From contig NC_007517.1 in NCBI RefSeq assembly GCF_000012925.1, forward strand, positions 2,610,001-2,642,000: 32,000 nucleotides of DNA, written 5' to 3'. The stretch is from Geobacter metallireducens GS-15. GTDB lineage: Bacteria; Desulfobacterota; Desulfuromonadia; Geobacterales; Geobacteraceae. A program made the position numbers and the translations under genes. The notes under the pieces were generated by a model. It worked only from the letters and a program-made list of their open reading frames with translations, made no database searches and had not been told where the DNA came from. Positions 863-18,207 of this stretch are shown one piece after another. Numbering within the stretch: the first letter of the stretch is position 1; each line of letters opens with the position of its first letter.

Positions 863-880
863 GGGAACTCCGAACAATTT

Positions 881-1264
881 TTAGCCGATTCGTAGCAATT
901 CCCTTGCCACGGCAAGGATTTTGCCGGCCTGAATCGGTTTCGTGAGATAGTCGTTGGCCCCGAGGGCAAGGCCGCGCTGGCGGTCCTCGGCAGCCCCCTC
1001 GGTGGTAATGATCACGACAGGGATGTGCCTCAGGGACGGATCGTTGCGGACAAGGCTCACGAGCTTCAGGCCATCCATGATCGGCATATTGATATCGGTA
1101 AATATCAAGTCAAAACTATCCCCTCCCAGCTTTTTCAGGGCATCAACGCCGTCGGTCGCCTCCACCAGCGCAACGCCAGGGAGCCGCCGCAGCGTGAAGG
1201 AGATAAGCTGCCGCATGGTGGGCGAGTCTTCTACGACAAGTATCCTCTTATCGGACATAGTCAT
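881..1264 (-). CDS. cheY: CheY-like single-domain response regulator (last che gene of the operon)
   Basis: Receiver motifs are present: ILVVEDS, FTDINMPIMDG, VVIITTEG, LTKP. The track ORF starts at TTG 1279. I prefer ATG 1264 or 1258, which sit downstream of a GGAG. The stop is TAA at 881-883. Confidence 0.9.
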   Translation of the reverse strand: MTMSDKRILVVEDSPTMRQLISFTLRRLPGVALVEATDGVDALKKLGGDSFDLIFTDINMPIMDGLKLVSLVRNDPSLRHIPVVIITTEGAAEDRQRGLALGANDYLTKPIQAGKILAVARELLRIG

Positions 1265-1283
1265 GGATCTCCGGTGCAATAGG

Positions 1284-2117
1284 CTACTTCGTCAGGAGAT
1301 TGATGAATCCCTGCATGGTGGAGCGCTTGCGCTCCGAATCCGAGTAAAGCCTGGAACTGAATATGGCGGTTGCCGCATGGCCGGCAAGGAGTGTGAACAG
1401 TTCATAGTCCACCGGCACAAAGGCTTTTTTCTGGATCAGGAGCTTGTAAATGACGATGACTCCGATCACTTGATCCTTGATCTTGAGGGGTATGCAGACC
1501 ATGGGATTCGAGAGGTCTCGCACGTATCCCGCCGGATCCTCGAGGAAGTGGCTCTCGCCGGTAGCGGCGATGGCCCCGATGGTCCCCTCGCCGGGCCGCA
1601 CCTTCGGCACATCATCAAGGGAAATGCCCTCGGCGGCAACGGCGCCCAGCAGGCCGGCCTTCTCGTCGATGAGCATGACGGCGAATTCCTCGGCCCCGAT
1701 CAGGTTGATGATGATCTCGGTGATGACCTTGAGAACGTCATCAAAATCGAGAATGGAGTGGAGTTGGTAGCTGGCTATGTAGAGGTTTGCCAGATTGTTG
1801 TTTTCCTCTTCGATTTCCACATAGCGGGTGGCGAAATCATTGTTCTCAGCCTCAATCTGCCTGATGCGGCCGAGAATCTCGTCCTTCTCCCGCTCCAACT
1901 CCTCGATGCGGGCGGCGAGAAGCCGGTTTTCCTCGACAAGGGAAGCCGGAGCCCCTCCCTTGCGCTGGTGTTCCTCCAGCTGAAAAATCCGATATCGAAG
2001 CCGCTCGTTCTCCTTGAGGAGATCCTGGGTAAATTCCGCGCCCTTCTTGAAGAGCTGGAGGAATTCGTCGGCCCGCACATGCATCCCTTTTTCATCACTC
2101 TTGTCATCCATCGACAT
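1284..2117 (-). CDS. Coiled-coil plus GAF domain protein
   Basis: The N-terminal ~110 aa are heptad-rich (LKENERLRYRIFQLEE, IEELEREKDEILGRIRQIEAENN, IEEENNNLANLY). The C-terminal ~160 aa look GAF-like (ITEIIINLIGAEEFAVMLIDE...GEGTIGAIAATGES...VCIPLKIKDQVIGVIVIYKL). I place the start at ATG 2117 (GGGAG 6 nt upstream), because the track start at 2231 overlaps cheB. Confidence 0.8.
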   Translation of the reverse strand: MSMDDKSDEKGMHVRADEFLQLFKKGAEFTQDLLKENERLRYRIFQLEEHQRKGGAPASLVEENRLLAARIEELEREKDEILGRIRQIEAENNDFATRYVEIEEENNNLANLYIASYQLHSILDFDDVLKVITEIIINLIGAEEFAVMLIDEKAGLLGAVAAEGISLDDVPKVRPGEGTIGAIAATGESHFLEDPAGYVRDLSNPMVCIPLKIKDQVIGVIVIYKLLIQKKAFVPVDYELFTLLAGHAATAIFSSRLYSDSERKRSTMQGFINLLTK

Positions 2118-2181
2118 GACTTGCTCCCAGCACCACACTTGTTTATACGGCGCGGCGGTTACGCAGCGGACCCTCGGCCTG

Positions 2182-3264
2182 CTAATCAAGGTCGGTGGCC
2201 ACTCCGCAACGCATACGGATTTCCCGCGCAATCAGATCGAGGGGTACCACCTTATCAACCACACCCGTGGCGATGGCCTCCCTCGGCATTCCAAACACCA
2301 CTGCCGAACTCTCGGCTTCGGCAAGGGCTTGTCCTCCCGCGCCTTTGATGGCCCGCACCCCCCGGCTCCCATCGTTCCCCATGCCCGTAAGCACTACGCC
2401 AAGGGTCCGCGGTCCAAAGACTTCCGCACAGGAGGCAAGCATGGCGTCGACCGATGGGATGTAGCGATCCTCGGGAGATGGTTTGCGCACCCTCACCACC
2501 ACTGAGCCGGAACTCTTCTCGAACACCATGTTGTGGCCGCCGGGAGCAATCAGCACCCGCCCCGGCCACACCGTATCGCCGTCGGCCGCTTCCTTGACCT
2601 CGAAAACGGAGAGGCGGTTGAGGCGCTCCGCGAAGGTTCGCGTGAAACCGGCGGGCATGTGTTGAGAAATAACGATCGCCAGGGGAAGGGCCTCGCGGAA
2701 CGAAGAGAGAATCCGCTGGATGGCGGGGGGGCCGCCGGTGGAAGAACCGATGGCCACCACATCGAGACGGCACGGCACCACACGTCGCGGCTCCGCTTCC
2801 GCCTTTTTCGGGGCGACAGGAGGGGGAGCCAAAACCTCCACTTTCTCACGGCGGATGATCTCCTTCATGTTCAGGGAAAAGACGCCCCGCACCTTCTGCT
2901 GGATATCGTCGGTTATGGTAAGGAGTTCCTCGGAAATCCCCTGGCTCGGCTTGGCGACGAAATCGACCGCTCCCAGTTCAAGAGCCTTGAAGACCTTCTC
3001 GTCATCACTCTTGGCGCTGATCACAATGACCGGTGTCGGACAGTACCCCATGATGATCCGCAGGAGAGTGAAGCCGTCCATCTTGGGCATCTCGAGGTCA
3101 AGGGTCACGAGGTCGGGCTTCAGATCAATGACTTTTCTGATCCCCTCCTCGCCGTCGTTGGCGTATCCCGCCACCACCACCTCGGGCATGCTTTCAAGCA
3201 TTTTGATAATGGCCCGCCGGTTGAAGGCGGAATCGTCGATGACGACAACCCTGATTTTTCTCAT
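2182..3264 (-). CDS. cheB: Protein-glutamate methylesterase/glutaminase CheB (receiver + methylesterase)
   Basis: N-terminal receiver motifs [18 protein letters not shown]. Catalytic Ser/His/Asp contexts are present: [25 protein letters not shown]. The ATG at 3264 overlaps the cheR stop as ATGA. Confidence 0.95.
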
Positions 3265-4136
3265 AATCCACCCCCTGCCCCGCCCGGGAAGGGCTTCTGG
3301 TAGACCATGTCGTTCTTGAAGTGTTTAAGGGTGAAGGCCGTGGAGATATTCATGAGCGATTCGGAGTGACCCAGGAGGAGATATCCCCCTTCGTGCAGGG
3401 TCCGGTAAAAGGAGTCAATCACCTTCCGCCGTGCCAGCTGGTCGAAGTAGATGATGACGTTGCGGCAGTATATCACGTCCATGCAGCCCAGCAGCGCGAT
3501 GCGGTTCGCGTCGAGGAGGTTCAGGTGGCTTATGGTGACCAGTTCCCTCACCTTGTCGTTCACCCGGTACATTCCGTCCTGTTCGGTGAAGTAGCGACGG
3601 ATGTAGCTGTCGTCGGTCACCCGGAAGGAAGACTTGCCGTAGAGACCCTTGCGGGCCTGCTGAATCACCCGCTGACAGATGTCGGTGCCGATAATTTCCA
3701 CCTGCCAGCCGGCGAAACCGCCCATTTCCAGAAGGAGCATGGCGATTGTGTAAGGCTCTTCACCGCTGGAGCAGCCGGCGCTCCAGATGCGGAGCGTCCG
3801 GTCGCCGCTCTTCATTTTCATCGCGCGCAGAGCGGGAATGATCTCGTCGGTAAACGCCTTGAGCTGGAACGCCTCGCGGAAGAAGTAGGTCTCGTTGGTG
3901 GTGAGGAGATCCATGATATCCGAGAGTTCCTGGTCCCTGTTCCGGTTATACTTGAGGAAGTGGTAGTAGTCCCTGAACCCTGCGAAATGGTGAAACTGCA
4001 GACGCTTGGAGAGGCGCTTTTCCAGCAGGTAGGTTGCATCGCTATCAAAGTAGAGGCCACAATGATTGTAGATGAGATCCCGAATCAGGCGGAACTCCTC
4101 ATCGGATAGCGGTATTTCCGGTTCCAGGGTGAACAT
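3261..4136 (-). CDS. cheR: Chemotaxis protein methyltransferase CheR
   Basis: CheR N-terminal helical region ([25 protein letters not shown]) and SAM-binding region ([33 protein letters not shown]). ATG 4136 overlaps the upstream stop as TAATG and has GGAAGGTGG upstream. GTG 4145 is an alternative start. Confidence 0.93.
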
Positions 4137-6136
4137 TACCGCCACCTTCCGAGAAGGTCCCGGAGCTCACCCCGTACGAGTTCGTCCTGCTCGGCTTCCA
4201 GAGCCTTGCGCAGGTGCTCGGCCGCTCCCTCGCCGAGAAGATGCGCCATGGCACGGGCAGTGGCACACCGCACGTCCCAGTGGGGGTGTCGGAGAAGGCT
4301 GTCCCGGTACTCGTCAATCCAGGAGGAACCGCTGCGGGAGAGGATGTCGATGGCAGATTTCACCACCTCCTCGTCACTGCTCTCAAGGCCCCTTCTCACG
4401 AGCAGAAGTGCCCGGTCGTCCCCAAGACCGGCCAAGGCTTCGAGCGCAGTGATAAGCACGACCCCATCCGCCTTGCCCAACAGATCCTCGATGGCATCAA
4501 GCGCCCGCTCGCCGCCCATCTTGCCGAGGCTCCTGAGGGCAGCGCAGCGGACCCACGGATCTTCATCGTTGAGCGAAAGGATCAGAGAGTCCACGCTCCC
4601 CTCACCCTGCATCTCACCGAGTCCCGTAGCGGCGGCGATCCGCACATCAGGGTCCTCGTCCACCAGCGCCATGACCAGGTTCCCGAGGCATTCGGGAAGG
4701 CGCAGGCCCGCAAGAGCGGTCACAGCACTACGCCTCACAAGGGGGCTCTCATCCTTCACCAGAAGGGCAAGGCGCTCCGGATCGGCCAGAGCCGCGAATA
4801 TCCGCGCGGCATCCTGTCGGTTATCGGGGTTGGGCGACGTGGAAAGAGTCCTGGCGATGGCAGCCACCTTCTCCCGGCCGGTGGGGGCAAGACGCACAAG
4901 AGCATCCACGGCCCCCTTGCGCACGTCTTGCTCGCTGTCGTCAAGCAGCACTCGAATCTGATCCAGCAACCCGGTAAGGCCGATCTTACCTGCAGCCACC
5001 ACAGCGGCATTGCGGACCGAGTACCGGTTACTCGCCATGGCCTCGCCAAGATACGGCGCCGCACCACCAAAGCCCATTTCTCCCCACAGATAAATGATGA
5101 AGGTTTTTTCCTCATCATCGGCTTTGGAGAAAGCTGCAAGCAATGCGGCCATCCCACCCTCTCCCATAATCCGGAAACCCTGGAGACACGTGCGCCGAAG
5201 CCGCTCGTCGCGGCATCCCTCCAGAAGGGGCAGGGCCGCACGCTCATCACCGATAAGCGCCAGAATCCCCACAAGTGACTCTCTCACCTGCCGATCGGTG
5301 GTATCAAGGGATGCGATGAGATCATCCACGCACGGTTTCCCCCTGAAACCCGTGAGATGGTCATCAACCTCCCGTGCGTACACCGCGGGGAGTCTCCCCC
5401 TGAGGCGCGCCAGGGCGCAGGCCGCCGCTTCACGGACTGCCCGGACACGGTCCTGGAGCCCCTCCAGGATTACAGGTACGGCATCACGGTCTCCCACTGC
5501 GCCAAGGCACTCTATGACGGGACGCTTCAGGAGAGGATCCGCTACAAGGGGAGCAAACACCGGGATGGGAACCGGTTCCCCAATCCGGGTAAGGGCGCCG
5601 AGAACCGAAAAGCGGAACCAGACATCACCCGTTGCCAGGGCCTCAACCAGAGGCGCAACCGCGCGAGGGTCGCCGATCTTGCCGAGATTCTCCGCCGCTG
5701 CGGCAGAAACGTTGGCATCGGGATCCTGCAGTGCTTCCACGAGGGATGGGATGGATGAACGGTCGCCGATGCTGCCGAGGATGTCGGCGACAAATTTCCG
5801 TACGTCATGATCAGGGTCTTTGAGGTGGTCAAGGAGAAGCGGCACACTCCGGGATTCCAGGCGCTCCAGGGCCTCCACCGCCGAGTTCCGGAGCCCGGCG
5901 TTGTCGGAGGATGCAAGCAGGCCGATGAGCCCGTTCAGGGTTGAGTCATCAAGGGGCACGGTGAGAAGCGTGTTGACCGCCTCCTTGCGTACCCGCCAGC
6001 TCCCGTCCCCCATGGCTGAAAAAAAGAGTTCACGACTCCTGGCGAGAGGATGGCGACCCAGGCCGATGACGGCCTGTCGACGCTCCTCGTCGTCGGCACC
6101 AGTAAGTTGAGTACGTATGTGTTCAAGATCGCCCAC
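4136..6136 (-). CDS. Large HEAT-repeat (PBS-lyase HEAT-like) protein, about 666 aa
   Basis: About 18-19 iterations by eye of a ~31 aa unit of the type D.D..VR..A..AL..(I/L)G. Examples are DHDVRKFVADILGSIG, DPDVRIAAATGLGEMQG, DPWVRCAALRSLGKMGG, HWDVRCATARAMAHLLG. I saw no enzymatic motif. I prefer GTG 6136, which has AGGAG 7 nt upstream. The track start GTG 6175 lies in the loop of a hairpin. Confidence 0.85.
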   Translation of the reverse strand: MGDLEHIRTQLTGADDEERRQAVIGLGRHPLARSRELFFSAMGDGSWRVRKEAVNTLLTVPLDDSTLNGLIGLLASSDNAGLRNSAVEALERLESRSVPLLLDHLKDPDHDVRKFVADILGSIGDRSSIPSLVEALQDPDANVSAAAAENLGKIGDPRAVAPLVEALATGDVWFRFSVLGALTRIGEPVPIPVFAPLVADPLLKRPVIECLGAVGDRDAVPVILEGLQDRVRAVREAAACALARLRGRLPAVYAREVDDHLTGFRGKPCVDDLIASLDTTDRQVRESLVGILALIGDERAALPLLEGCRDERLRRTCLQGFRIMGEGGMAALLAAFSKADDEEKTFIIYLWGEMGFGGAAPYLGEAMASNRYSVRNAAVVAAGKIGLTGLLDQIRVLLDDSEQDVRKGAVDALVRLAPTGREKVAAIARTLSTSPNPDNRQDAARIFAALADPERLALLVKDESPLVRRSAVTALAGLRLPECLGNLVMALVDEDPDVRIAAATGLGEMQGEGSVDSLILSLNDEDPWVRCAALRSLGKMGGERALDAIEDLLGKADGVVLITALEALAGLGDDRALLLVRRGLESSDEEVVKSAIDILSRSGSSWIDEYRDSLLRHPHWDVRCATARAMAHLLGEGAAEHLRKALEAEQDELVRGELRDLLGRWR

Positions 6137-6166
6137 TGACGGTCTCCTTGTCGAACTGTCAGGATT

Positions 6167-6183
6167 CCCGCACACACTGCGGG
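6167..6183 (-). other. Intercistronic hairpin between cheW and the HEAT-repeat gene
   Basis: On the minus strand: CCCGCA-GTGTG-TGCGGG, a 6-bp stem with a 5-nt loop. No U-tract follows, so it is not a typical terminator. It may be a processing or stability element. Confidence 0.3.
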
Positions 6184-6201
6184 TATCCTCTTTTTCCGGA
6201 A

Positions 6202-6699
6202 TTATCGGGCGGGAGTTGCGCCCGATGCCCGTGAGAAGCCGGCGAGAGCCGATGTTTCACGGCTGTTCAGAATAGTGTCAAGATTGAGAAGCATGATGAG
6301 GCTGTCGCGGACAAGACAGACGCCGATCAGGTACTCGGTGCTGATCCCCTCGGCCACATGGGGAGGGGGCTTGATGTCATGGGCTTGGACCGTAACGACC
6401 TCGGTGACGTCGTCCACGACGAGCCCCACGAGTTGGCGGGACACGGTTACCACCAAAAGCCGTGATTCCTCCAGCGGAGCGCGTTCAGGAAGCTCGAACC
6501 GCTTGCGCAGATCCATAACCGGAATGACCGTGCCGCGAAGATTGATTACCCCTTCCACAAAGGACGGTGTCCTGGGTAGCTTCGTCAGGTGCTGAGGCTT
6601 GAGGATTTCCTTGATCCTCATGATGTCAGCGGCAAAATTCGCATCACCCAGACGGAAACAGGCAAGCTGAATTTCCTGGATGTCGGTTTCCATCATCAT
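6202..6699 (-). CDS. cheW: Chemotaxis coupling protein CheW
   Basis: A single CheW domain: LACFRLGDANFAADIMRIKEI, PSFVEGVINLRGTVIPVMDLRKRF, VGLVVDDVTEVV. AGGGGGG lies upstream of an ATGATGATG start. Confidence 0.93.
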   Translation of the reverse strand: MMMETDIQEIQLACFRLGDANFAADIMRIKEILKPQHLTKLPRTPSFVEGVINLRGTVIPVMDLRKRFELPERAPLEESRLLVVTVSRQLVGLVVDDVTEVVTVQAHDIKPPPHVAEGISTEYLIGVCLVRDSLIMLLNLDTILNSRETSALAGFSRASGATPAR

Positions 6700-6747
6700 C
6701 CCCCCTGGGGCAGCACATTTAAATGGTTTCTGTCTGGCTCCCTCCCG

Positions 6748-7119
6748 TTAAGGAGAGAGGAGATCCTGAATTATCTCAATGATCTTTGCCGACTTGAACG
6801 GTTTGGTGACGTAGGCCGACGCGCCCGCCGCCATCCCTCGCGCGCAGTCCTGCTCGCTCTTCTTGGCCGTAAGCATCACGACGGGAGTGTGTGCCGTTTC
6901 GGGATTCTGCTTGATGCGCCGGCAGACCTCAAAGCCATCTATCTCCGGAAGCATGATGTCGAGGATGACCAGATCGGGCCTGGTCAAGCCGACCTGTTCA
7001 AGGGCGGCCACCCCGTCGGTGGCACCCACCACTTCATACCCCCTGGACGTGAGGAGAATGCTTTCAAGCTTGAGAAGGCTTTCCTCATCCTCGACGATCA
7101 GAATTTTTTTCTTCGTCAT
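6748..7119 (-). CDS. Stand-alone response regulator receiver protein (non-CheY-like subtype)
   Basis: Receiver motifs KILIVEDE, LVILDIMLPEIDG, PVVMLTAK, YVTKPF. ATG 7119 has AAAGGG 7 nt upstream. The track start ATG 7140 has no SD and remains an alternative. Confidence 0.88.
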   Translation of the reverse strand: MTKKKILIVEDEESLLKLESILLTSRGYEVVGATDGVAALEQVGLTRPDLVILDIMLPEIDGFEVCRRIKQNPETAHTPVVMLTAKKSEQDCARGMAAGASAYVTKPFKSAKIIEIIQDLLSP

Positions 7120-7157
7120 GTCTGGACCCTTTCGCGCCATTAAAATGGGGCACGATT

Positions 7158-7874
7158 TCAGAGCAGCAACACGTCAAGAACCTTTTCCATTGCGAGCATA
7201 ATGACGATCTTTCCGTCATGGCGTCCGATACCGGAGACAAATTCACGATCTATGCCATCGAGAACCGCAGGGGGCTGTTCCACGGTGTCTGCAGCAATCC
7301 GAACCACCTGGGTCACCTCGTCCACAAGAATACCACAGAGACCATCACCTTTCTTCACCACGATGATGCGCTCTTTCCCTCCCCCTTCTTCCCGGCACAG
7401 GCCAAGGCGCTCCCGGAGGGCGAATACGGGGATAATGATGCCGCGCAACGAGAGCACACCGGCGATGAAGGGGGGTGCATGGGGAACCTCCGTTGTCTCC
7501 CGGGGCTTGATGATCTCCTTCAGTTCCATGATGTCGATGCCGTAAATCTCGTCGGCAACCCTGAAGCAAAGAATTTCGAGGGAAGACGAAGCTTGGACCG
7601 GGAGGTCGGCATCGTCTTCAACAGGGAGAACCTCATCAACAAGGGCAGACTTCCGCCCTTCGAGGATAACGGTCAAGGGGTCGCGAACAACCGGCGGAGC
7701 AAAGCTGGCCTGGATGATCTCATCCTGGGGAAAGGACTCGTCATAGTGGCCATCATCGGTCTCCTCCAGCGGAGGAGCGGAGGGGGTAACCGGTGATTGC
7801 GCAGCCTGGGGTTCCTCGCGTCGCCCTTCGCGTTCCCTTTGGGCCTTTTTCCTGATTTCGGCTATATCCATCAT
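7158..7874 (-). CDS. CheW-domain protein with ~95 aa acidic/Pro-rich N-terminal extension
   Basis: C-terminal CheW domain: ILCFRVADEIYGIDIMELKEI, PPFIAGVLSLRGIIIPVFALRERL, CGILVDEVTQVV. I place the start at ATGATG 7874, with AAGGA upstream. The track start at 8120 overlaps the upstream ATPase gene. Confidence 0.85.
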   Translation of the reverse strand: MMDIAEIRKKAQREREGRREEPQAAQSPVTPSAPPLEETDDGHYDESFPQDEIIQASFAPPVVRDPLTVILEGRKSALVDEVLPVEDDADLPVQASSSLEILCFRVADEIYGIDIMELKEIIKPRETTEVPHAPPFIAGVLSLRGIIIPVFALRERLGLCREEGGGKERIIVVKKGDGLCGILVDEVTQVVRIAADTVEQPPAVLDGIDREFVSGIGRHDGKIVIMLAMEKVLDVLLL

Positions 7875-7893
7875 GGCAGTCGATCCTTTGACC

Positions 7894-8697
7894 TCAGTAG
7901 AGGCTCGCTTCGTCACGCAACTCTTCCACCAGCGATGCATCGATCCAGGCAGAGTCCTTCCCGAACCCCACCAACAGCGCATTGGTCGCCAGGATGTTGA
8001 TCTTGCGCGGCACCCCGCCCGACAACTCGTAAATCCTCCGGATGGCATCCGGAGAGAAGAGCCCCTGGGGTCCGCCGGCCACCTCCACCCGGAAGTCCAC
8101 ATACTCGAGGGTTTCCTCAAGGCTCAGGGGCTGGAGGTGGTAGTGCATGGCAATCCGCTGCCGCAGGGCTTCATGGGCCGGCTCGGACAGTATCTGCCGC
8201 AGCTCCGGCTGCCCCATGAGAATAACACTCATGAGGTTGCGGTCGTCCAGCTGAAAGTTGGTCAGGAGCCTGATCTCGTCGAACACCTCCTGGTCGGGGA
8301 TCAGCTGGGCCTCGTCAATGATGATGACCGGGCAGCGCTTCTCCCCCTCGAGCCGGTAAACCGCCTCGGTGAGCTGCCGCAGGAGTTCGTCCTTGGCCGC
8401 GGCCGGCTCAGCGATGCCGAGACTGCGGGCCACCGTGCGGAGGAATTCCACGGCCGAGAGTCGCGGGTTGACGATGAAACAGAAACAGCCGTCATTCCCC
8501 ACGGCGTCCATGAGCGCCCGGGAGATGGTGGTCTTGCCGCAGCCGATGTCGCCAGTGAGGAGCGCCAGTTCCCGCTCCTCCACCGCATACTGGAGCCGTG
8601 CCAGGGCTTCCCGGTGTCCCCGCGACAGAAAGAGGTAGCGCGGGTCCGGGGTCTTCGAGAACGGCTTTTCGGTCAGACCGTAGAACTCCCTGTACAT
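7894..8697 (-). CDS. ExeA/GspA/MshM-like AAA+ ATPase (AAA_22-type)
   Basis: N-terminus MYREFYGLTEKPFSKTPDPRYLF is typical of ExeA-like proteins. Walker A is GDIGCGKTT and Walker B is VIIIDEAQ. GQPEL and GGVPRKIN motifs are also present. The ATG at 8697 directly abuts the cheA stop (TAG|ATG, zero gap). Confidence 0.85.
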   Translation of the reverse strand: MYREFYGLTEKPFSKTPDPRYLFLSRGHREALARLQYAVEERELALLTGDIGCGKTTISRALMDAVGNDGCFCFIVNPRLSAVEFLRTVARSLGIAEPAAAKDELLRQLTEAVYRLEGEKRCPVIIIDEAQLIPDQEVFDEIRLLTNFQLDDRNLMSVILMGQPELRQILSEPAHEALRQRIAMHYHLQPLSLEETLEYVDFRVEVAGGPQGLFSPDAIRRIYELSGGVPRKINILATNALLVGFGKDSAWIDASLVEELRDEASLY

Positions 8698-10770
8698 CTA
8701 CCCTCCGCTCCGGAACGCCTCGCCGATGATCCCCCCCACGTCGAGCACGAGGATCGTCCGCTGGTCCCCCAGGTCCGCCGCTCCGGTGATCCCCCGGTAC
8801 CCCTTGAACATGTCCCCCAGGGATTTGATGACAATATCCTGCTGCCCCATGAGATCGTCGACAATGACCCCGAGCCGTTTCTCCGCCACCCCCACCACCA
8901 CCACGTAGAACTCGGCGGAATCCGGTTTTGTGCGCGGGACGCCGAAAAAGCGCTCCAGCCGCACGAGCGGCAGGGTCGTTTGCCTGAGCTGGTAGACCTC
9001 CTTGCGCTCCACGGTATCGATGTCATTCTCGGTGACGATGATCGTTTCAAGCACCGACGTGATCGGGAGGGCGTAGGTGCGCCCGGCGGTGGAAACCAGC
9101 AGCGCCTTGATGATGGCCAGGGTGATGGGAAGGGTGATGATGACCTTGCTCCCCTGGCCGAAGATGCTCTCGATGTCCACCATCCCCGAGACGGCGGCGA
9201 TGTTGTTTTTCACCACATCCATGCCGACGCCGCGGCCCGACAGCTCGCTCACCTTGTCGGCGGTGGAAAAGCCGGGGAGAAAGATGAAATCGAGGGCCTC
9301 CCGGTCGGATACCCCTTCCAAGGTCTTGATGAGCCCCTTTTCCAGGGCCTTCTTCTTCACCTTTTCGATATTGAACCCGTGCCCGTCGTCCGACACTTCG
9401 ATGACGACGTGGTTTCCCTTCTGGTAGGAGGAGAGACGGATGGTTCCCCGCTCGGGCTTGCCGGCGGCCACCCGCTCTTCCGTGGTCTCCAGTCCATGGT
9501 CGATGGCGTTGCGGATGATGTGAACCATGGGGTCGGCGATATCCTCGATGATGAGCTTGTCCAGCTCAGTGTCCGCGCCAAAGGTCTTGAGGTCGACCTT
9601 TTTCCCCTGTTCCCGGGAGACCTTCCGGACAATGCGGGCCATCTTCTCGAAAAGTTGCCCAACCGGGATCATCCGGATCTCCATGACCCCCTTCTGCAGT
9701 TCCGTGAGCTTGCGGTCGAGCCCCTTGGCCGCCTTGCCCAGCTCGATGGCCAGGGACGAGAACCCTTCGAGTCTCATGCGTGTCGCCAGCATCGAGATGA
9801 TGGAATGGGAGAGGACCAGCTCGCCCACGATGTTCATGAGATCGTCCAGCTTGCCGATGTCGACCCGCACCGTCCGGCTCATGCTCTTGGCGGTCATGTC
9901 GTCGCCCTGGCCGACAGGAGCGGAGACCTCTGCCGGAGCCGAAGTCGGAACCGACGCCTGCGCTGTAGCGGGGATTGCCACGGCAACACCGGCCGCGATG
10001 GCCGAGGGTGGAGAGGCAGCCGCACCGATCCGGGTGACCTCGACATTATCCCGGTCAATGAGTCCGGTAACATCATCAAGCGCGAGGTCGGTGCCGTAGA
10101 GGATCTCGAAGTCGATCATCGACTCGGGAGTGGCACTGGCACTGGGGAGAGTACTCACCACCTCTCCAGACTTCTTCAGGACTTCCGTGATCTCCCCCAG
10201 ATCCTGATCGAAGGACATGAGGTTGAAGGAGGCATGGATGGAGTAAATGGTCCGCCCCTTCTTCACATTCTCCAGCAGCCGGTGTTCCTCGTATTCGGTG
10301 AGGGAGTTGAGGACCTTCTCCGGCAGGCCGAGCTTCTGGAGGGGTGACTCGCCGCCACTCTCCTGGGCTGTGGCGCAGTCATTGAGCCGCTGAATCGCGT
10401 CGGCAATGGCGGAAGAGAAGTTTTCTCCGGTGCCGAGCCCCCGCACCACGGAACCGAGAAGTTCCATGGCATCGAAGAGGATGTTCATGGTGGCATTGGT
10501 GAGGGGTATTTTGCCGAGGCGAAGTGAATCGAGAAGGTTTTCCAGGTTATGGGAGAGCTGCTGGATGTCGGCGAAACCGAACATGCCGGCGAGCCCCTTG
10601 AGGGAGTGGGCGCCGCGGAAAATGGCATTGAGCAGGTCCGGATCACACTCCCCGCTGTCGGCGCAGTCGCCGAGGGTTCCCAAGTCGGTGCTCAGTCGAT
10701 CGACAATCTCTTCGGCTTCGGCCAGGAAGTCTTCCACGGCCCTGCCGGACGTATCATTTGAATTTGCCAT
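8698..10770 (-). CDS. cheA: Chemotaxis histidine kinase CheA (P1 HPt, dimerisation, HATPase, CheW-like P5; no fused receiver)
   Basis: HPt motif FRGAHSLKGLAGMFG. Dimerisation region RVDIGKLDDLMNIVGELV. ATPase boxes HIIRNAIDHG, VSDDGHGF, GRGVGMDVV. The C-terminal P5 region has ADLGDQRTILVLDV. Confidence 0.95.
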   Translation of the reverse strand: MANSNDTSGRAVEDFLAEAEEIVDRLSTDLGTLGDCADSGECDPDLLNAIFRGAHSLKGLAGMFGFADIQQLSHNLENLLDSLRLGKIPLTNATMNILFDAMELLGSVVRGLGTGENFSSAIADAIQRLNDCATAQESGGESPLQKLGLPEKVLNSLTEYEEHRLLENVKKGRTIYSIHASFNLMSFDQDLGEITEVLKKSGEVVSTLPSASATPESMIDFEILYGTDLALDDVTGLIDRDNVEVTRIGAAASPPSAIAAGVAVAIPATAQASVPTSAPAEVSAPVGQGDDMTAKSMSRTVRVDIGKLDDLMNIVGELVLSHSIISMLATRMRLEGFSSLAIELGKAAKGLDRKLTELQKGVMEIRMIPVGQLFEKMARIVRKVSREQGKKVDLKTFGADTELDKLIIEDIADPMVHIIRNAIDHGLETTEERVAAGKPERGTIRLSSYQKGNHVVIEVSDDGHGFNIEKVKKKALEKGLIKTLEGVSDREALDFIFLPGFSTADKVSELSGRGVGMDVVKNNIAAVSGMVDIESIFGQGSKVIITLPITLAIIKALLVSTAGRTYALPITSVLETIIVTENDIDTVERKEVYQLRQTTLPLVRLERFFGVPRTKPDSAEFYVVVVGVAEKRLGVIVDDLMGQQDIVIKSLGDMFKGYRGITGAADLGDQRTILVLDVGGIIGEAFRSGG

Positions 10771-10779
10771 GGATAACCC

Positions 10780-11145
10780 TCAGGCCGTGTACTGTTTGAT
10801 CAACTCCTGCAAACGCGCCGGATCGAACGGCTTCACCAGATATTCGTTGGCACCGAGAGCGAGCCCCTTTTCCCGGTCACGCTCGCTCCCTTCGGTGGAT
10901 ATGATGAAGAGTGGGATATGGCGGTAATTTTCACTTCCACGGACAAAGCTCACAAGCTCAAGCCCGTTGATGTCGGGCATATTGATATCGGTTATGATCA
11001 GGTCAACGGGTTCCCGAGGCAGAAGCCGAAGGGCTTCGAACCCGCTCGCCGCCTCGGAAACCAGATATCCGCCGAGGGACTCGATGGTCGCCACCAGAAG
11101 GGACCGCATGGTCGACGAGTCTTCCGCTATAAGGATTTTCTTCAC
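10780..11145 (-). CDS. cheY: CheY-like single-domain response regulator
   Basis: Receiver motifs ILIAEDS, ITDINMPDINGLE, FIISTEG, LVKPF. The GTG start at 11145 overlaps the upstream stop as GTGA. Confidence 0.92.
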   Translation of the reverse strand: MKKILIAEDSSTMRSLLVATIESLGGYLVSEAASGFEALRLLPREPVDLIITDINMPDINGLELVSFVRGSENYRHIPLFIISTEGSERDREKGLALGANEYLVKPFDPARLQELIKQYTA

Positions 11146-12326
11146 GTTACACTCCGAAGTTTACTTTCCAGCAGCGCTTTTTCCATGACCAGCCCGGCTT
11201 GGGACAGAAAAATCTCCAGGGCCTCCGTCCCGACGATTGGCCTGCGCTCGGCCTGATTGTCACCGTAGAGGACAGCGATCACCTCTCCACCACTTACGAT
11301 CGGCCCGAGGAAAACCTCGTGGGGAATCTCCACGCCGATACGGCCGAACAGATAACGATTCCATTCATTCGCTTCGGGACGGACCACTGCCGGGTGTTTC
11401 GCTTCAATAACCCCGCTGAACAGCGATGGCTCTCCTCTCGGTATGCGGAGCGACCTGATCCGCTCGTCGGCACCGCCTCCGCGGTCGTCGAGGCCAAACT
11501 GACCGAGCCCCACAACCTCTTCCTTCAGTACCCTGAAGATTACCGCCCGGTCCATGAACTCCGCGGCAAGCCGCAGGACCAGCAGGGTAATGCCGCATCC
11601 CAGCTCGGGATTGTGCAGCTCTTCGAGCATCCCCCGCAACAGGGTCATCCGGTCAGCGTGGCTGTAACCCTCCTCACCGGTCTTTGCCAGCTCCTCTCCC
11701 ATTTCGAGACGAAGCTCCTCACCGATGTTGATGTGCCCCGGCGGCGGCGCAGGCACCACGGTACGCCCTTCAGGAGGCTGGGGAACCCGGAGGGGCTCCT
11801 CATCCCGGGGAATATCCCTTCTGCGGCGGTCCTGGTTCGCCTCCGCCATCAGGAGCCGGGGATTGAGCCCCTGTTCCAGCATGAACTGGAGGGGATCCAT
11901 CCTGATGGTGCCGGCAGTGGCCACGTTGTCCTGGAGAATGAATTCGAATGTCCCTTCCACCCAGGCAAAGAGCGTATAGACTACCCGCTCCACCTGCTCC
12001 CGGGCCACATCTTCGACAACGGTGGCAGGCACGCCGAATCGTCGCACCAGGATCGATCCGAGCCGTTCCTGGAATCCCTCGCTTTCCTGGCATGCAAGGG
12101 CTGACCGCAGGGTTGCGAGATCGAGCTTCCCCTTGCGGATCAGGACCTCGCCGATATTCTCCAGGAGGGTGCTGGAGGTGGCCTGGATCACCTGACCGAG
12201 ACGGAAGACGATGGTCCCTTCACGCCCCCGGCTCTTGATCCGCAGAATCCCCGACTTTGATGAAAGGCTGATGATCTGTAAGATCTCACCCAGCCCCAGA
12301 TCTTCAAGACTCCCGACAAGGCTCAT
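11142..12326 (-). CDS. DUF4388 (PATAN-like) N-terminal domain protein with C-terminal GAF-like domain
   Basis: The N-terminus SLVGSLEDLGLGEILQIISLSSKSGILRIKSRGREGTIVFRLGQV matches my memory of the DUF4388/PATAN signature. A Pro/Arg-rich linker follows. The C-terminal ~150 aa look GAF-like (ITLLVLRLAAEFMDRAVIFRV...GGEVIAVLYGDN). This is the first gene of the che-like operon. Confidence 0.75.
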   Translation of the reverse strand: MSLVGSLEDLGLGEILQIISLSSKSGILRIKSRGREGTIVFRLGQVIQATSSTLLENIGEVLIRKGKLDLATLRSALACQESEGFQERLGSILVRRFGVPATVVEDVAREQVERVVYTLFAWVEGTFEFILQDNVATAGTIRMDPLQFMLEQGLNPRLLMAEANQDRRRRDIPRDEEPLRVPQPPEGRTVVPAPPPGHINIGEELRLEMGEELAKTGEEGYSHADRMTLLRGMLEELHNPELGCGITLLVLRLAAEFMDRAVIFRVLKEEVVGLGQFGLDDRGGGADERIRSLRIPRGEPSLFSGVIEAKHPAVVRPEANEWNRYLFGRIGVEIPHEVFLGPIVSGGEVIAVLYGDNQAERRPIVGTEALEIFLSQAGLVMEKALLESKLRSVT

Positions 12327-12374
12327 GGCATGAGAGGGTCAAAAACCCGGAAAACAGTGGTAGAAACGGCGCTC

Positions 12375-12404
12375 ATCATAAACTACTCGTCCGGTTCAAG
12401 TAAA
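12375..12404 (-). promoter_or_regulatory. Candidate sigma70-type promoter for the che-like operon
   Basis: On the minus strand: TTTACT (12404-12399), an 18-nt spacer, then TATGAT (12380-12375), about 50 nt upstream of the ATG at 12326. The -35 is a weak match, and readthrough from der is equally possible. Confidence 0.25.
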
Positions 12405-12410
12405 GCACGT

Positions 12411-13730
12411 TTACTCCCGGCGATCCCTGCCCCGGAAGATGATCTTGAGCGGGCTGCCGGTGAAATCGAACGCCTCGCGGAACTTGTTCATGAGGTACCG
12501 CTCGTAGGAAAAATGCACCCCCTCCGGCTGATTGGTGAACAGTACGAATGTCGGCGGCTTCGTCCCCACCTGAGTGGCGAAGTAGAACTTCACCCGCCGC
12601 CCGTGGGAAAGGGGGGCGTGGTGTTTCTCCACCGCCTCGGAGAAGACCCGGTTCAGGTCGGAGGTGCTTACCCGCTTGGAATACTGGGCCATGACCCGCT
12701 CCACCTCCTCCATGACCCGGTTGATCCGCTGGCCACTCTTGGCTGATACAAATACTATCGGCGCGAATGAGAGATACTTGAATTCCGTCTTGATCTGGTC
12801 GACGAATTTCCCAAGGGTGCTGTTGTCCTTGGCCAGGGTATCCCACTTGTTGACCACGAAGATGCAGGCCTTGCCCGCCTCAAAGGCGTAGCCGGCGATC
12901 CGCTCGTCCTGTTCCGTCACCCCTTCCTCGGCATTGATGATGATGAGCACCACGTCGGCCCGCTCGATACTCCGCAGGCTGTCCACCACGCTGTACTTCT
13001 CCAGCTTCTGGGTGGTCTTACCTTTGCGCCGGATGCCGGCCGTGTCGATGAGGAGGTAGCGCTTCTTGTTGCAGGCGAAGAGAGTATCGACGGAATCCCG
13101 GGTGGTGCCGGGGGTGGGGTTGGCCACCACCCGCTCGAAACCGAGGAGCCGGTTCACCAGGGACGACTTCCCCACGTTGGGGCGCCCCACCACGGCGATC
13201 CGGGTGATATCCTCGTCATCAAGGCGGGTCGAGCTTTTGGGAAGGGCCGCCACCACCTCCTCCATGAGGTCGTTCACCCCCCGGTTGTGCTCGGCGGAGA
13301 TGGTGTGAAGGGTGCCGATCCCCAGGGTGTAGAAATCGGCCGCCTCGTTCTCGATCTTTTCGCCGTCCACCTTGTTGACCACGAAGAAAACGGGCTTTTT
13401 CACCCGACGGAGCATCTCCACCACCTCCACGTCGGATGGGGTGAGCCCGGCCCGGCCATCCATGAGGAAGATGATGACGTCCGCCTCCTCCATGGCGAGC
13501 TGGGACTGCTCCCTCATCTGCTGCAGGAGCCGGTCTTCGCTCACCGGCTCGAAGCCGCCGGTGTCGATGAGAATGAACGGCGCCTCGAAGCGGGTGACGG
13601 TTTCGTAGTTCCGGTCCCGGGTGACGCCGGGCATGTCGTCGACAATGGCCTTGCGGCGCCCCACGAGACGGTTGAACAGGGTCGATTTCCCCACGTTGGG
13701 GCGACCCACTATGGCAACGAGTGGCATCAT
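12411..13730 (-). CDS. der: Ribosome-associated GTPase Der/EngA (tandem G domains + KH-like)
   Basis: Two G domains are present: [12 protein letters not shown] with DTGG and NKVD, then [12 protein letters not shown] with DTAG and NKWD. The ATG overlaps the era stop as ATGA. Confidence 0.96.
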
Positions 13731-14623
13731 GTGTATCCAAGCTCCTTCAGCATCCGCTCGTCTTCGCTCCAGTCCTTGCGGACCCGGACGAAGAGTTCCA
13801 GGAAAACTTTCGTATTGAGTAGTTTCTCGATCTCGACCCGGGCTGCCGAGCCGATCTTTTTCAGCATCGCCCCCTTTTTGCCGATGATGATCCCCTTCTG
13901 GGAATCCCGTTCCACGGTGATGGTGGCGGCAATGGAGACGAGGCCTCCGTCCTCCCGCTCCTTGAAGCTGTCCACCTCCACGGCGGTGGCGTAGGGGACC
14001 TCGTCGCGGGTCATGCGAAAGACCTTCTCCCGGATGATCTCCGCGGCAATGAAGCGCTCCGGCACGTCGGTCAGGATGTCGTCGGGAAAGTAGACCGGTC
14101 CCTGGGGGAGGGCCTTGCGAACCAGTTCCACCAGATGGTCGACACCGTCGCCGGTGCCGGCCGAAATGGGCACGATCTCCCGGAATGGATAGCGGTCCTT
14201 GTAGGCGGCGATCCGCTCCAGCACCGCCCCCTTCTCCGTCAGGTCCACCTTGTTGATGACAAGGAAGACCGGCGCCGTGGCCCCGGCAAGAACGTCGATG
14301 ATCTCCTGCTCCTGCTCCCCCGGCTTCTGATTAGCCTCAACAAGGAAGAGGACCAGGTCCACCTCCCGGATGGCGGACAGGGCCACCTCCACCATGTACT
14401 TGTTGAGCCGCGAGCGGGCCTGGTGGATTCCCGGCGTGTCGATGAAAACGATCTGGGCGCCGGGGACGTTGTGGATCCCCTGTATCCGGTTACGGGTCGT
14501 CTGGGGCTTGTCCGAGGTAATAACAATCTTTTCGCCGAGAATCCGGTTCAGCAGAGTCGATTTCCCTACGTTGGGGCGCCCGATGATGGACACGAATCCG
14601 GATCGGAACGGGTTATCTGACAA
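13727..14623 (-). CDS. era: GTPase Era
   Basis: G domain motifs [20 protein letters not shown], and a C-terminal KH domain ([15 protein letters not shown]). I prefer TTG 14623, which has AAGGAG 7 nt upstream and gives 8 residues before GF, as in E. coli Era. The track start TTG 14656 overlaps the upstream stop. Confidence 0.95.
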
Positions 14624-14652
14624 AGTGCAACTCCTTTCGTGAAACGTGCAGG

Positions 14653-15693
14653 TCAATCCAGCACGTTGCCGGCAATGGTTCCGCCGGCATAAACAACTTC
14701 GAGATCGTAGGGGGAGAGGTGCGAACTGCCGGTGACCCGCGTCACCGCCACGCCGGACCGCTCCCTGAGACGGACGAGATTACGGCGGTGCTGCCCCGCC
14801 ACGTCGGACAACCGCCGGGGCGCGCAGACAACCACCAGATCGGAACCGGCGGGAATCCCCGCTGTCAGTCGCTGGAGAAGATCGAAAAAGAGTTCGCTTT
14901 CCGCAAGCTGCCGAAATGCCGGATGCCACGGACCAGCCAGGACCGTCCCGGGCCGCTCCAGTTCCTCCGTGGGCTGGAGACCAATCCGGATCACCGGCAC
15001 GCCGGCAGAGATACACCGGCGGAGCATGGCCGCGCAGAGGGAGACGGCATCGTCGAGGGCCAGGGGGGTGTAGTCCCCGGAGCGCCAGAGTTCCGCCAAC
15101 CGGGTCCCCTCCACAACCAACGTGGGATAGATGCGCATAAAGGCCGGAGACAGGGCAAGGACCCGTTCGAGGGATTCAAGGGTCGAATCTGCGGTATCGC
15201 CGGGAAGCCCCGGCATCAGTTGGGCGCCGACGTCGATGCCGGCCCCGCAAAGGGACGCGAACGCCTGCTCCACATGGGCCGCCCCATGCCCCCTGCCGGC
15301 CGCGGTGAGAACAGCATCATCCATGGACTGGACCCCCAACTCCACGGTGGCCACGCCACGGCTCGCGAGAAAGCGCGCCGTTTCACCGTCAACCGCATCG
15401 GGCCGGGTGGAAAGCCTCACCCGGGCCACGCTCCCCGTTGCCATGAGGGGCTGCAGCGGCGCCAGGAGCCGTTCCTGGTCGCTCCGAGGGAGGCTCGTGA
15501 AGGTGCCGCCATAGAAGGCCACTTCCAGAGGCCTCCCCCGTCCGGACGCGGCATGGCGGTCGATGGTGGCGATCATCTCCTCCGGCTCAGGAAGCCCGGG
15601 CCGCTGGCCGGAAATCCGCTCCTGGTCGCAGAAGACACACTGATGGGGACATCCCTGGTGGGAGATAAAAAAGGGGACAATGAGCGGCTTCAT
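14653..15693 (-). CDS. Radical SAM domain protein (ELP3/COG1243-like core, no acetyltransferase domain)
   Basis: The N-terminus [18 protein letters not shown] contains a CX3CX2C 4Fe-4S/SAM motif. YGGTF and ELGVQS-type core strands are present. The ATG at 15693 overlaps the rnc stop as ATGA. Confidence 0.85.
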
Positions 15694-16430
15694 CCTTCTC
15701 CTTCGGCAGCGAACCGCGCGAGCACCTGCCGGGCAGCCGCCTGCTCCGCCTCCTTCTTGCTCCTCCCAGCCCCCTCCCCCATCCGTTTTCCGGCCACCAT
15801 GGCAATTACCGTGAAGCGCCGGTCATGGGGAGGGCCGTCCGTAGCGATTAACTCATAGGTGGGCGCCGTCCCGAATCGGGTCTGAACCATTTCCTGAAAC
15901 TCGGTCTTGAAATCCCGCCCCGTGGCCCCCGAAGCAATGCCGGCCAGCAGGGGAGAGAAGTCCTGCTCCACGATCCGTTCGACGGGGCCAAGGCCGCCAT
16001 CCAGGTAGACTGCTGCTAGCAGGGCCTCGTAGGTATTGGCCAGAAGCGACCGGCGCTCCCGCCCGCCGCTCCGCTCCTCGCCCCGCCCCAGGAGCAGATG
16101 TCGTCCAAGGCCGCGGGCCGAGGCCAGCGCCGCAAGAGTTTCCTCCCCCACGAGCGACGCCTTCATCCGGGCCAGCACCCCCTCGCGGCTCTGGGGAAAG
16201 CGGGCAAAAAGCATCTTTCCCACCAGGAGCCCGAGCACCGCATCACCCAGAAATTCCAGGCGCTCGTTGTCTCGAATCCCCTCCTCGCCGCGGCGCTCGT
16301 TCACCCAGGAACGATGGGTAAGGGCCTCAGCCAGGAACTGCCGATTGACGAAGCGGTAGCCGATGCCCGCCTCCAGTTCAGTCGCGCTCTCCTGAACCGC
16401 GCTTTTGTCCTCTACGCCCCGTTCTCCCAT
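15690..16430 (-). CDS. rnc: Ribonuclease III
   Basis: RNase III signature NERLEFLGDAVLGLLV preceded by EALTHRS. The C-terminal dsRBD has DFKTEFQE, GPPHDRRF and GRSKKEAEQAAA. I use ATG 16430. The track start is TTG 16436. Confidence 0.95.
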   Translation of the reverse strand: MGERGVEDKSAVQESATELEAGIGYRFVNRQFLAEALTHRSWVNERRGEEGIRDNERLEFLGDAVLGLLVGKMLFARFPQSREGVLARMKASLVGEETLAALASARGLGRHLLLGRGEERSGGRERRSLLANTYEALLAAVYLDGGLGPVERIVEQDFSPLLAGIASGATGRDFKTEFQEMVQTRFGTAPTYELIATDGPPHDRRFTVIAMVAGKRMGEGAGRSKKEAEQAAARQVLARFAAEGEG

Positions 16431-16438
16431 GACCAAAC

Positions 16439-16527: not shown

Positions 16528-16563
16528 TCAGCTTTTACAAAATGGAAGGGCAATGCAACCCCC

Positions 16564-17217: not shown

Positions 17218-17220
17218 GCG

Positions 17221-18177: not shown

Positions 18178-18207
18178 ACGCCGCTTGTATTTTTTTCGGA
18201 GGACAAC

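Follow-up and report, generated by a model that had tools for sequence, protein, structure and literature searches.

Analysis of a 32,000-nucleotide stretch of the Geobacter metallireducens GS-15 genome (NC_007517.1, positions 2,610,001 to 2,642,000; referred to below as the window) revealed that a 267-residue AAA+ ATPase, which by its sequence belongs to the ExeA/GspA family in the broad sense, is encoded in an obligate three-gene linkage, cheA-ATPase-cheW, that is found across phyla. The CheW protein encoded directly downstream of the ATPase is long and carries a conserved N-terminal peptide, here called the hook; what is new is this hook-bearing CheW and its pairing with the ATPase. The ATPase is very probably a dedicated component of this chemosensory system and, to judge from its residues, is probably a soluble, catalytically competent accessory subunit paired with the long CheW. 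By analogy with other ATPase-partner systems, we propose, with a probability of about 0.5, that it docks on CheW and thereby assembles or positions the signaling array in an ATP-dependent manner.

The open reading frame (ORF) of the ATPase runs on the minus strand from ATG (8697 to 8695) to TGA (7896 to 7894). Since the cheA gene (10770 to 8698, minus strand) ends with a TAG codon at 8700 to 8698, the ATPase starts at the very next base, a junction of 0 nucleotides. An earlier note on this DNA, made from the letters alone, had described the 267-residue ORF and its TAG|ATG junction with cheA together with an ExeA-type N terminus (MYREFYGLTEKPF) and the Walker A and Walker B motifs; all were found, on the minus strand. 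It had also placed cheW next, which holds once the start of that gene is corrected. The cheW ORF listed from TTG 8120 overlaps the ATPase gene and is not a real gene; the true start is ATG 7874, located 19 nucleotides past the ATPase stop codon and preceded by AAAGGA, for a protein of 238 residues. A Shine-Dalgarno-like GGAGG lies within the final codons of cheA, 4 nucleotides ahead of the ATPase ATG. The GC content of the ATPase gene is that of the neighboring genes. A terminator scan of the che cluster found none between cheA, the ATPase gene and cheW, and predicted promoters and terminators in the cluster were no more numerous than expected by chance. An ORF of 824 residues without family matches (7873 to 10347, plus strand) runs antisense to the CheA and ATPase genes, and another of 847 residues, likewise without family matches (16528 to 19071, minus strand), runs antisense to tmk, holB and a PSP1-domain gene; both are shadow ORFs expected in GC-rich DNA and are not genes.

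A scan of species-representative genomes (one genome per species, GTDB) returned at least 595 relatives of the ATPase, and the proteins of the window were placed by tblastn on the 80 most similar loci (ATPases 57 to 88% identical; labels Geobacter, Geomonas, Desulfuromonas or similar). The best named match, at 88%, was a Desulfuromonadales metagenome-assembled genome (MAG). cheA was directly upstream of the ATPase gene in all 80 loci, a CheW gene was directly downstream wherever the contig continued, and the gene order from der to the last receiver was largely kept. The absence of conserved co-occurrence with cheA, which according to the earlier note would speak against a role in the pathway, is decisively contradicted by these loci. 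The distance from the cheA stop codon to the ATPase start codon was −8 to +5 nucleotides in 73 of the 80 species loci and 0 in 6; among 83 decidable loci, which include L001 to L003, the values were −8 (21 loci), −1 (7), 0 (8) and +1 to +5 (39). Because this junction is conserved, translational coupling, as had been proposed from the window alone, is strongly suggested. A matched stoichiometry of the ATPase and CheA, which the earlier note had added, is not a consequence of such coupling.

The association extends to distant relatives. Five of six distant short forms (41 to 52% identical) found by a representative-sequence search lie in che clusters with the same core. A cluster labeled Thermodesulfovibrionales reads PatA_N, receiver (REC), CheA, ATPase (8-nucleotide overlap), CheW, class-40H methyl-accepting chemotaxis proteins (MCPs), CheW, HEAT; the other distant clusters are in one "Deltaproteobacteria" MAG and three metagenome contigs. 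A Vicinamibacteria-labeled contig reads REC-CheA-ATPase-CheW...CheR-CheB. Since relatives labeled Nitrospirota and Acidobacteriota share the layout, the cheA-ATPase association spans at least three phylum-level labels, as given in the MAG records; it is real, ancient and tight. A further relative, P0140 (44% identical, locus L090), is encoded on a short contig, where its neighbors are a ParA-like gene and a response regulator gene. In one rearranged locus (L089), the ATPase gene is flanked by two CheW genes at a distance of 6 kb from cheA and lies directly before the peptide-bearing one, indicating that the ATPase-CheW pairing persists without adjacency to cheA. This locus (509 to 16103) comprises three MCPs, a CheW with a weak zinc-finger match, the ATPase, the hook-bearing CheW of 338 residues, CheB, two CheR, the HEAT protein, an HDOD-HD protein, a receiver and, last, cheA.

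The long CheW of the window consists of the N-terminal peptide, a low-complexity linker of about 85 residues rich in proline, alanine and glutamate, and the CheW domain (residues 100 to 234). In other loci, the CheW encoded after the ATPase has 194 to 366 residues, versus about 160 for the second CheW. The linker varies in length and sequence across loci, whereas the peptide is conserved, and the hook is found once per locus, solely at the N terminus of the long CheW. Its consensus is [DNE]-[LI]-[AV]-[EKD]-I-R-[KQN]-K-[AS], with M-D/N-L/I-A-E/K-I-R-K-K-A as the near-invariant form. Among 72 unique 12-mers, the arginine is present in all, and the isoleucine that precedes it and the second lysine that follows it are each present in 70. 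A metagenome scan was made with the back-translated hook alone as the query, the ATPase not being used. The 120 matches listed, to which the following counts refer, comprised 20 chance matches without a CheW domain, 10 matches near a contig end, 89 with the ATPase upstream and 1 without it. At least 100 CheW genes thus carry the hook, and the ATPase is encoded directly upstream in 89 of the 90 decidable cases. These 89 ATPases are 41 to 89% identical to that of the window (median, 55%), their genes often run 20 or 32 nucleotides past the cheW start, and cheA directly precedes the ATPase gene in 48 of the 49 loci with enough DNA.

The assignment to the ExeA/GspA family made in the earlier note was supported by profile searches and alignments. 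The Pfam AAA_22 model gave 83.2 bits (cut-off, 27), residues 41 to 170 spanning the whole model. TIGR03015 (XrtA/PEP-CTERM ATPase), the best NCBIfam model, aligned end to end (residues 1 to 261 with model positions 1 to 263 of 269) with a score of 239.1 bits. This is below the cut-off of 324.5, indicating that the window ATPase is not a member of TIGR03015; of the models that had been recommended as a check, AAA_22 scored above its cut-off and the PEP-CTERM model did not. The N-terminal family motif F/Y-G-L/F..P-F..x-P-D/N-P..F, Walker A (GxxGxGKT) and Walker B (DEAQ) are all present. In an alignment with Aeromonas ExeA, Ideonella GspA, MshM, PEP-CTERM ATPases and 27 long forms, R143, N147, Q163, Q180, R181, R203, R231 and N234 were identical across the aligned members. 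Loci were fetched for comparison from Aeromonas (ExeA/ExeB), Ideonella (GspA/GspB), Legionella (MshL-ATPase-MshN-MshE), the Desulfovibrio vulgaris plasmid pDV and Sphingomonas (PEP-CTERM), and Rhodovulum and Ruegeria (exopolysaccharide [EPS]); the fetched ExeA/GspA, MshM, PEP-CTERM and EPS-locus members are 33 to 42% identical to the window ATPase, and family relatives were seen in type II secretion, mannose-sensitive hemagglutinin (MSHA) and PEP-CTERM/EPS loci, as had been stated in the earlier note. The window ATPase ends at residue 267, with no C-terminal membrane segment or further domain. It accordingly lacks, as had been stated, the peptidoglycan-binding C-terminal extension, which is present as PG_binding_1 in the long form P0129. 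The AlphaFold2 model has a predicted local distance difference test score of 93.5, and its best PDB fold matches are the ATP-DNA-MuB filament, archaeal ORC/Cdc6 and TnsC (template modeling scores of 0.64 to 0.74). No solved structure of a close relative was found, the sole match of the PDB sequence search being MuB (E value, 2e-4).

Residues G49, G52, G54, K55 and T56 are invariant in 148 of 148 che-linked ATPases and in 35 of 35 other family members. The Walker B residues D128 and E129, the sensor-1 asparagine and four arginines are likewise invariant in the 148 unique che-linked sequences, which are 265 to 287 residues long and show no decay. This clade is acidic (median isoelectric point, 5.2) and has invariant residues that the other family members lack (K15, R34, E40, D64, F139, Q149, L150, D151 and N154), with Q149, L150, D151 and N154 in the loop that follows sensor 1. 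Since the catalytic residues are invariant, the lengths are steady and clade-specific residues are present, the window ATPase is, on this sequence evidence, a working enzyme that is strongly constrained and has its own distinct surface. The subfamily that we propose is defined by a length of 265 to 287 residues, cheA directly before, directly after it a CheW that begins with M-[DNE]-[LI]-[AV]-x-I-R-[KQN]-K, and the signature residues, all of which apply to the window ATPase. Among relatives of the ATPase, P0121, P0125 and P0218 are tandem AAA_22 duplications in one polypeptide of 600 to 690 residues, and P0127 is an AAA_22 ATPase joined to a ParA/CbiA-like domain. P0448 and P0471, of the short ExeA-like clade, are named tRNA t6A ATPase subunit TsaE in NCBI records, probably a misannotation from a weak P-loop match to TsaE models; the window ATPase also shows such a weak match.

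By analogy, the ATPase/long-CheW pair most likely works like ParC and ParP of Vibrio. ParP interacts with ParC through its N-terminal domain, which a long, proline-rich linker joins to a C-terminal CheW/P5-like domain for integration into arrays (PMC5706961), and the long CheW shares with ParP this three-part build and the gene position relative to its ATPase. PpfA of Rhodobacter, with TlpT, provides a second example of an array-placing ATPase encoded in a che operon (PMC9178275). ParC and PpfA are of the ParA/MinD type with a deviant Walker A motif, KGGxxK[ST], whereas the P-loop of the window ATPase is GDIGCGKT and its fold that of AAA+ initiators and MuB; the window ATPase gave no ParA/CbiA match in Pfam and has no sequence relation to ParC or PpfA. 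Its closest solved folds, MuB/TnsC/TniB and ORC/Cdc6, are 15 to 20% identical to it. MuB, TnsC and ORC/Cdc6 are switch-type AAA+ proteins that oligomerize with ATP. In MuB/TnsC-type systems, the partner makes its contact via a short peptide at its terminus, carried on a flexible, nonconserved linker, as in the 15-residue TnsB "hook" on TnsC filaments; ATP hydrolysis and disassembly are driven by the partner terminus, an example being the MuA C terminus on MuB (PMC9371665, PMC11292022). In the ExeA/GspA family itself, the ATPase domain of ExeA is needed for the complex with ExeB, which is encoded directly downstream (PMC4098917, PMC9239104).

In the scheme that we propose, the ATPase would be made together with CheA via the coupled junction and, in its ATP state, would oligomerize as MuB, TnsC and ORC/Cdc6 do. 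It would bind the basic N-terminal peptide of the long CheW, the hook hanging on its flexible, nonconserved linker from a CheW domain held in the receptor/CheA lattice. The ATPase may then nucleate, cluster, position or remodel the array in an ATP-dependent manner, and hydrolysis, possibly triggered by the peptide, would release it. The acidity of the clade, in which E40, D64 and D151 are invariant, as against the basic hook, is counted in favor of docking, an idea that rests on analogy and not on homology. Somewhat short of an even chance is the broader proposal that the ATPase represents an AAA+ counterpart of ParC/ParP, that is, an unrecognized class of chemosensory accessory proteins that would dock on the hook, act in array nucleation, placement or remodeling across Desulfuromonadia and MAGs labeled Nitrospirota and Acidobacteriota, and underlie the Esn pathway of Geobacter sulfurreducens (see below).

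Several observations weigh against the proposal of an array factor that docks on CheW. The 80 loci are the nearest of at least 595 relatives and not a sample of the whole family. In L181, a hook-bearing CheW has no ATPase upstream despite enough DNA, and in L221 the genes are REC-CheA-ATPase (8-nucleotide overlap) with no CheW after. Fusions of the ATPase to CheW or CheA were not found among 10 multidomain or tandem relatives, which have tandem AAA_22 domains or peptidoglycan-binding extensions only. Homology of the hook to the N termini of GspB, ExeB or MshN was rejected: a hidden Markov model of the 72 CheW peptides was compared with these N termini and with decoys, and 6 to 28% of the decoys scored as well. 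Because the scores were not above those of the decoys, no homology between the hook and GspB-type N termini is claimed. The Tn-Seq phenotype of the G. sulfurreducens counterpart (GSU2221, see below) may be polar on esnB. Finally, in the Che8 cluster of Myxococcus, a member of the same group of clusters, the locus tags of CheW8b and CheA8 are consecutive (PMC3945109); to judge from these tags, this cluster appears to lack the ATPase, indicating that the ATPase is not essential to every such system.

The hook-bearing CheW of L181 (2754 to 3350) has 194 residues and its upstream gene is divergent; the ATPase may be located elsewhere in the genome or have been lost. L221 (5619 to 8819) has no CheW, CheR or CheB nearby and is flanked by convergent genes for a Ras-like GTPase, a GAF-GGDEF protein and SecA; the module may be present there in a minimal version.

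The N termini of GspB-type proteins read MSYILDALRRADAERERE in Ideonella, MSTLLKALRRAD in Aeromonas and MSLLNEMLKDL in the MshN-like protein of Legionella. Conservation of this end of GspB is striking: of 120 Burkholderiales GspB proteins, which elsewhere share about 45% identity, 104 have the same N-terminal 20-mer (MSYILDALRRAEADRERERG; L094, 6651 to 7262; P0301 to P0420), and Aeromonas ExeB and the Legionella MshN-like protein begin similarly. This N-terminal cytoplasmic peptide may be an undescribed docking site for the ATPase domain of GspA/ExeA. The gspA and gspB genes of E. coli K-12 were dropped as comparators, being degenerate and devoid of the motif.

The alternative that survives best, though we consider it unlikely, is that the ATPase acts on CheA and not via CheW, as a nucleotide-dependent regulator or assembly chaperone that would, for example, control CheA dimerization or incorporation or couple kinase activity to cellular ATP/ADP, the hook having another role. 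It is retained because no junction is tighter or better conserved than that with cheA (73 of 80 species loci) and because L221 keeps REC-CheA-ATPase without CheW; cheA is also directly upstream in 48 of 49 metagenome cases among the matches listed. However, the ATPase of L089 is 6 kb from cheA and still directly before a hook-bearing CheW, the hook predicts the ATPase in 89 of 90 cases among the matches listed, and no feature was identified that sets the CheA of these clusters apart.

A second alternative, in which the ATPase connects the pathway, as an output or bridge, to the machinery of secretion, type IV/MSHA pili or EPS, is suggested by its family. Relatives are encoded in type II secretion, MSHA and XrtA/EPS loci, the best NCBIfam model is a PEP-CTERM ATPase, and the che cluster starts with a PATAN-domain protein. 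The PATAN domain has been linked to pilus motors in cyanobacteria. In addition, the Esn pathway of G. sulfurreducens affects electrode biofilm growth (PMC5585712), and an unpublished knockout is said to alter extracellular matrix expression (PMC2577667). Canonical ExeA/GspA proteins share with the window ATPase the AAA_22 core, the F/YGL..PF..PDP motif, Walker A and B, and the conserved Arg, Asn and Gln residues (about 41% identity for Aeromonas ExeA and Ideonella GspA), and in both cases the partner is encoded directly downstream. However, the canonical proteins have about 300 more residues, with a membrane segment and a periplasmic peptidoglycan-binding domain (PF01471), and the window ATPase has no transmembrane segment, periplasmic part or peptidoglycan-binding domain. 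The partner is GspB/ExeB, or MshN for MshM, in those systems but CheW, in a cytoplasmic signaling context, here. No gsp gene is present in the window, and the ATPase is not a canonical type II secretion GspA. A true member of TIGR03015, from D. vulgaris plasmid pDV, has 439 residues, is 37% identical and is encoded among XrtA, Wzz and glycosyltransferase genes; this XrtA/EPS setting, marked by a chain-length determinant, a tyrosine kinase and a TIGR03016 outer-membrane protein and also seen in Sphingomonas, is absent from the window cluster, and the TIGR03015 score of the window ATPase is under the cut-off. In the Legionella MshM-type locus (MshL-ATPase-MshN-like-MshE), the ATPase has a hydrophobic C terminus; the window ATPase has neither this setting nor this anchor. 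No secretin, GspB, MshN, Wzz, XrtA, type II secretion, pilus or EPS gene was found in the cluster at any of about 180 che-linked loci examined. The ATPase gene lies between those of the kinase and the adaptor and not among the response regulators, and the protein has no receiver domain for signal input. The earlier note had left the choice between array assembly and such an output; array assembly is favored by the new evidence, and the output role appears improbable.

Still less probable is a nucleoid tether, in which the ATPase, like MuB, would polymerize on DNA with ATP and, with the chromosome as its scaffold, keep cytoplasmic arrays spaced or segregated in the manner of PpfA. The top fold match is the ATP-DNA-MuB filament, the sole PDB sequence match is MuB, PpfA provides a precedent (PMC9178275), and receptors in the cluster or partnered with it are of class 40H, some without periplasmic domains (PMC5585712). 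The proposal is unlikely because the che-linked ATPases are acidic; they also lack the extra N-terminal DNA-binding domain of MuB. We know of no ExeA-family member that binds DNA. The transposition regulators MuB, TnsC and TniB, marked by an adjacent DDE transposase and transposon ends, resemble the window ATPase in fold only, and the window contains no transposase. Lastly, a hitchhiking relic of a mobile-element AAA+ protein (TniB/IstB-like) without a signaling role, the hook being, for example, a degradation tag, might be suspected since plasmid AAA_22 relatives often lie beside IS481 or DDE transposases and an N-terminal motif of a Vibrio CheW is reportedly recognized for ClpP degradation, but this idea is effectively refuted by the conservation data, namely, an intact ORF with catalytic residues invariant in 148 homologues, a position fixed across at least three phylum-level labels, a GC content like that of the neighbors with no transposase nearby, and the joint occurrence of hook and ATPase in 89 of 90 cases among the matches listed.

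The window ATPase is the counterpart of GSU2221 of G. sulfurreducens, an assignment made by consecutive locus tags and synteny and not by the PCA sequence. GSU2221, annotated as "ATPase," lies between esnC/GSU2222 (CheA) and esnB/GSU2220 (CheW) of the electrode sensing network, Esn (PMC5585712). In a transposon sequencing (Tn-Seq) experiment on electrodes, insertions in GSU2220, GSU2221 and GSU2222 all lowered growth, with a value of −2.1 for GSU2221 and of −2.4 and −2.8 for its neighbors; EsnB and EsnC bound the receptor EsnA in a two-hybrid assay, and GSU2221 was neither deleted, named nor discussed (PMC5585712). The beta group of che clusters, which includes G. sulfurreducens cluster 5, is described by Tran et al. 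(2008; PMC2577667) as conserved in deltaproteobacteria, devoid of an mcp gene and of unknown function. The GSU2221/Esn cluster resembles that of the window in having CheA, two CheW, HEAT, CheR and CheB and no receptor gene (PMC2577667, PMC5585712). A literature search found no functional study of GSU2221, its mention being found in PMC5585712 alone, and no description of an ExeA-like ATPase as a conserved chemosensory component paired with a hook-bearing CheW. The earlier statement that ExeA-like ATPases are not known as Che components thus stands in that no study of one was found, but not in full, since GSU2221 had been scored by Tn-Seq within the esn cluster.

The usual picture of a chemosensory array is a lattice into which receptor, CheA and CheW assemble by themselves. 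To our knowledge, the only energy-using array helpers described are the ParA-type ParC and PpfA. An AAA+ ATPase genetically locked to CheA and to a specialized CheW in hundreds of environmental genomes would therefore suggest that the use of ATP to control how arrays are assembled or placed has arisen a second time, independently. Annotated genomes and one Tn-Seq table already contained the gene itself; the present proposal would give a concrete role to GSU2221, which was scored in the electrode-growth screen and yet passed over. It would also extend the ExeA/GspA family beyond envelope machines into cytoplasmic signaling, and it hints that docking on the terminal peptide of a partner may be a general working mode of ExeA/GspA-family ATPases.

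The che cluster of the window consists of tightly packed minus-strand genes in the order DUF4388/PATAN, CheY-like receiver, CheA, ATPase, long CheW, receiver, ordinary CheW, HEAT repeat, CheR, CheB, GAF and receiver, preceded on the same strand by rnc, a radical-SAM gene, era and der (Table 1). It contains cheA, cheW, cheR and cheB, conserved extra genes and no MCP gene within the cluster, as expected for a beta-group or Esn-type cluster (Tran et al., 2008; Chan et al., 2017), and it is gene-for-gene syntenic with those of Geotalea uraniireducens and of one Geobacter genome. The 3.79-Mb Geobacter genome has the same gene order and zero-nucleotide junction, with an ATPase 82% identical; unlike that cluster, the window cluster lacks a zinc-ribbon-REC gene and has no receiver domain in its PATAN protein.

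Table 1. Features of the che cluster in the window and N-terminal peptides of long CheW proteins
Feature	Coordinates	Strand	Basis or remark
cheA-ATPase junction	8695..8706	minus	GGAGG 8706-8702, G, TAG 8700-8698, ATG 8697-8695; read from sequence
Short, soluble AAA+ ATPase of the ExeA family, 267 aa	7894..8697	minus	Pfam AAA_22 2.5e-23
Walker A / P-loop GDIGCGKT	8530..8553	minus	ATPase residues 49-56
Walker B IIIDEAQ	8305..8325	minus	ATPase residues 125-131
Long-CheW N-terminal peptide MMDIAEIRKKAQ (proposed docking hook)	7839..7874	minus	Peptide conservation
Long CheW, 238 aa, EsnB counterpart	7158..7874	minus	Pfam CheW at residues 100-234
CheA histidine kinase, 690 aa: Hpt, H-kinase_dim, HATPase_c, P5/CheW-like	8698..10770	minus	Pfam; EsnC counterpart
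DUF4388/PATAN protein, weak GAF-like C terminus, 394 aa, first cluster gene	11142..12326	minus	Domain search
CheY-like single-domain response regulator	10780..11145	minus	Pfam Response_reg 7.4e-27; place before cheA conserved
Second single-domain response regulator	6748..7140	minus	Domain search
Second CheW, ordinary length, 165 aa, without N-terminal peptide	6202..6699	minus	Domain search
HEAT-repeat protein, 679 aa	4136..6175	minus	HEAT_2 8.3e-86; in nearly all related loci, including distant ones
CheR methyltransferase	3261..4145	minus	Domain search
CheB methylesterase with receiver domain	2182..3264	minus	Domain search
GAF-domain protein, conserved cluster tail	1284..2231	minus	Domain search and synteny
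Last response regulator of cluster	881..1279	minus	Domain search and synteny
Long-CheW N terminus, window			MMDIAEIRKKAQRERE
Long-CheW N termini, other Geobacterales			MDLAKIRKK / MNLAEIRKKA
Long-CheW N terminus, Nitrospirota-labeled			MDIAKIRKKLRE
Long-CheW N termini, further lineages			MDILKARKKAKK, MMDILSIRKKK, MVDILKLRKLQKK

Most orthologues of the DUF4388/PATAN protein have a receiver domain, which the window protein lacks; the orthologue of G. uraniireducens is DUF4388-REC-GAF-like, with 564 residues, and the short form is seemingly common to the closest relatives (loci L006 and L007). The zinc-ribbon and receiver gene is missing between the second CheW and HEAT genes (window 6175 to 6202) and is present at this place in most orthologous clusters, including those of Geotalea, Geobacter and distant MAGs. 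The rnc, radical-SAM, era and der genes (12411 to 16436, minus strand) lie directly upstream of the che cluster in most Geobacterales and Desulfuromonadales loci (L001 to L084), an unusually stable link between a signaling operon and ribosome-assembly GTPase genes. At the end of the window (31001 to 32000), the GC content drops to 41%, versus 57 to 67% elsewhere. A block of sugar and lipopolysaccharide genes ends here; its products include two epimerases, a heptosyltransferase, a DegT aminotransferase and a PglD-like acetyltransferase. A family-8 glycosyltransferase gene occupies the low-GC part and may stem from horizontal transfer.

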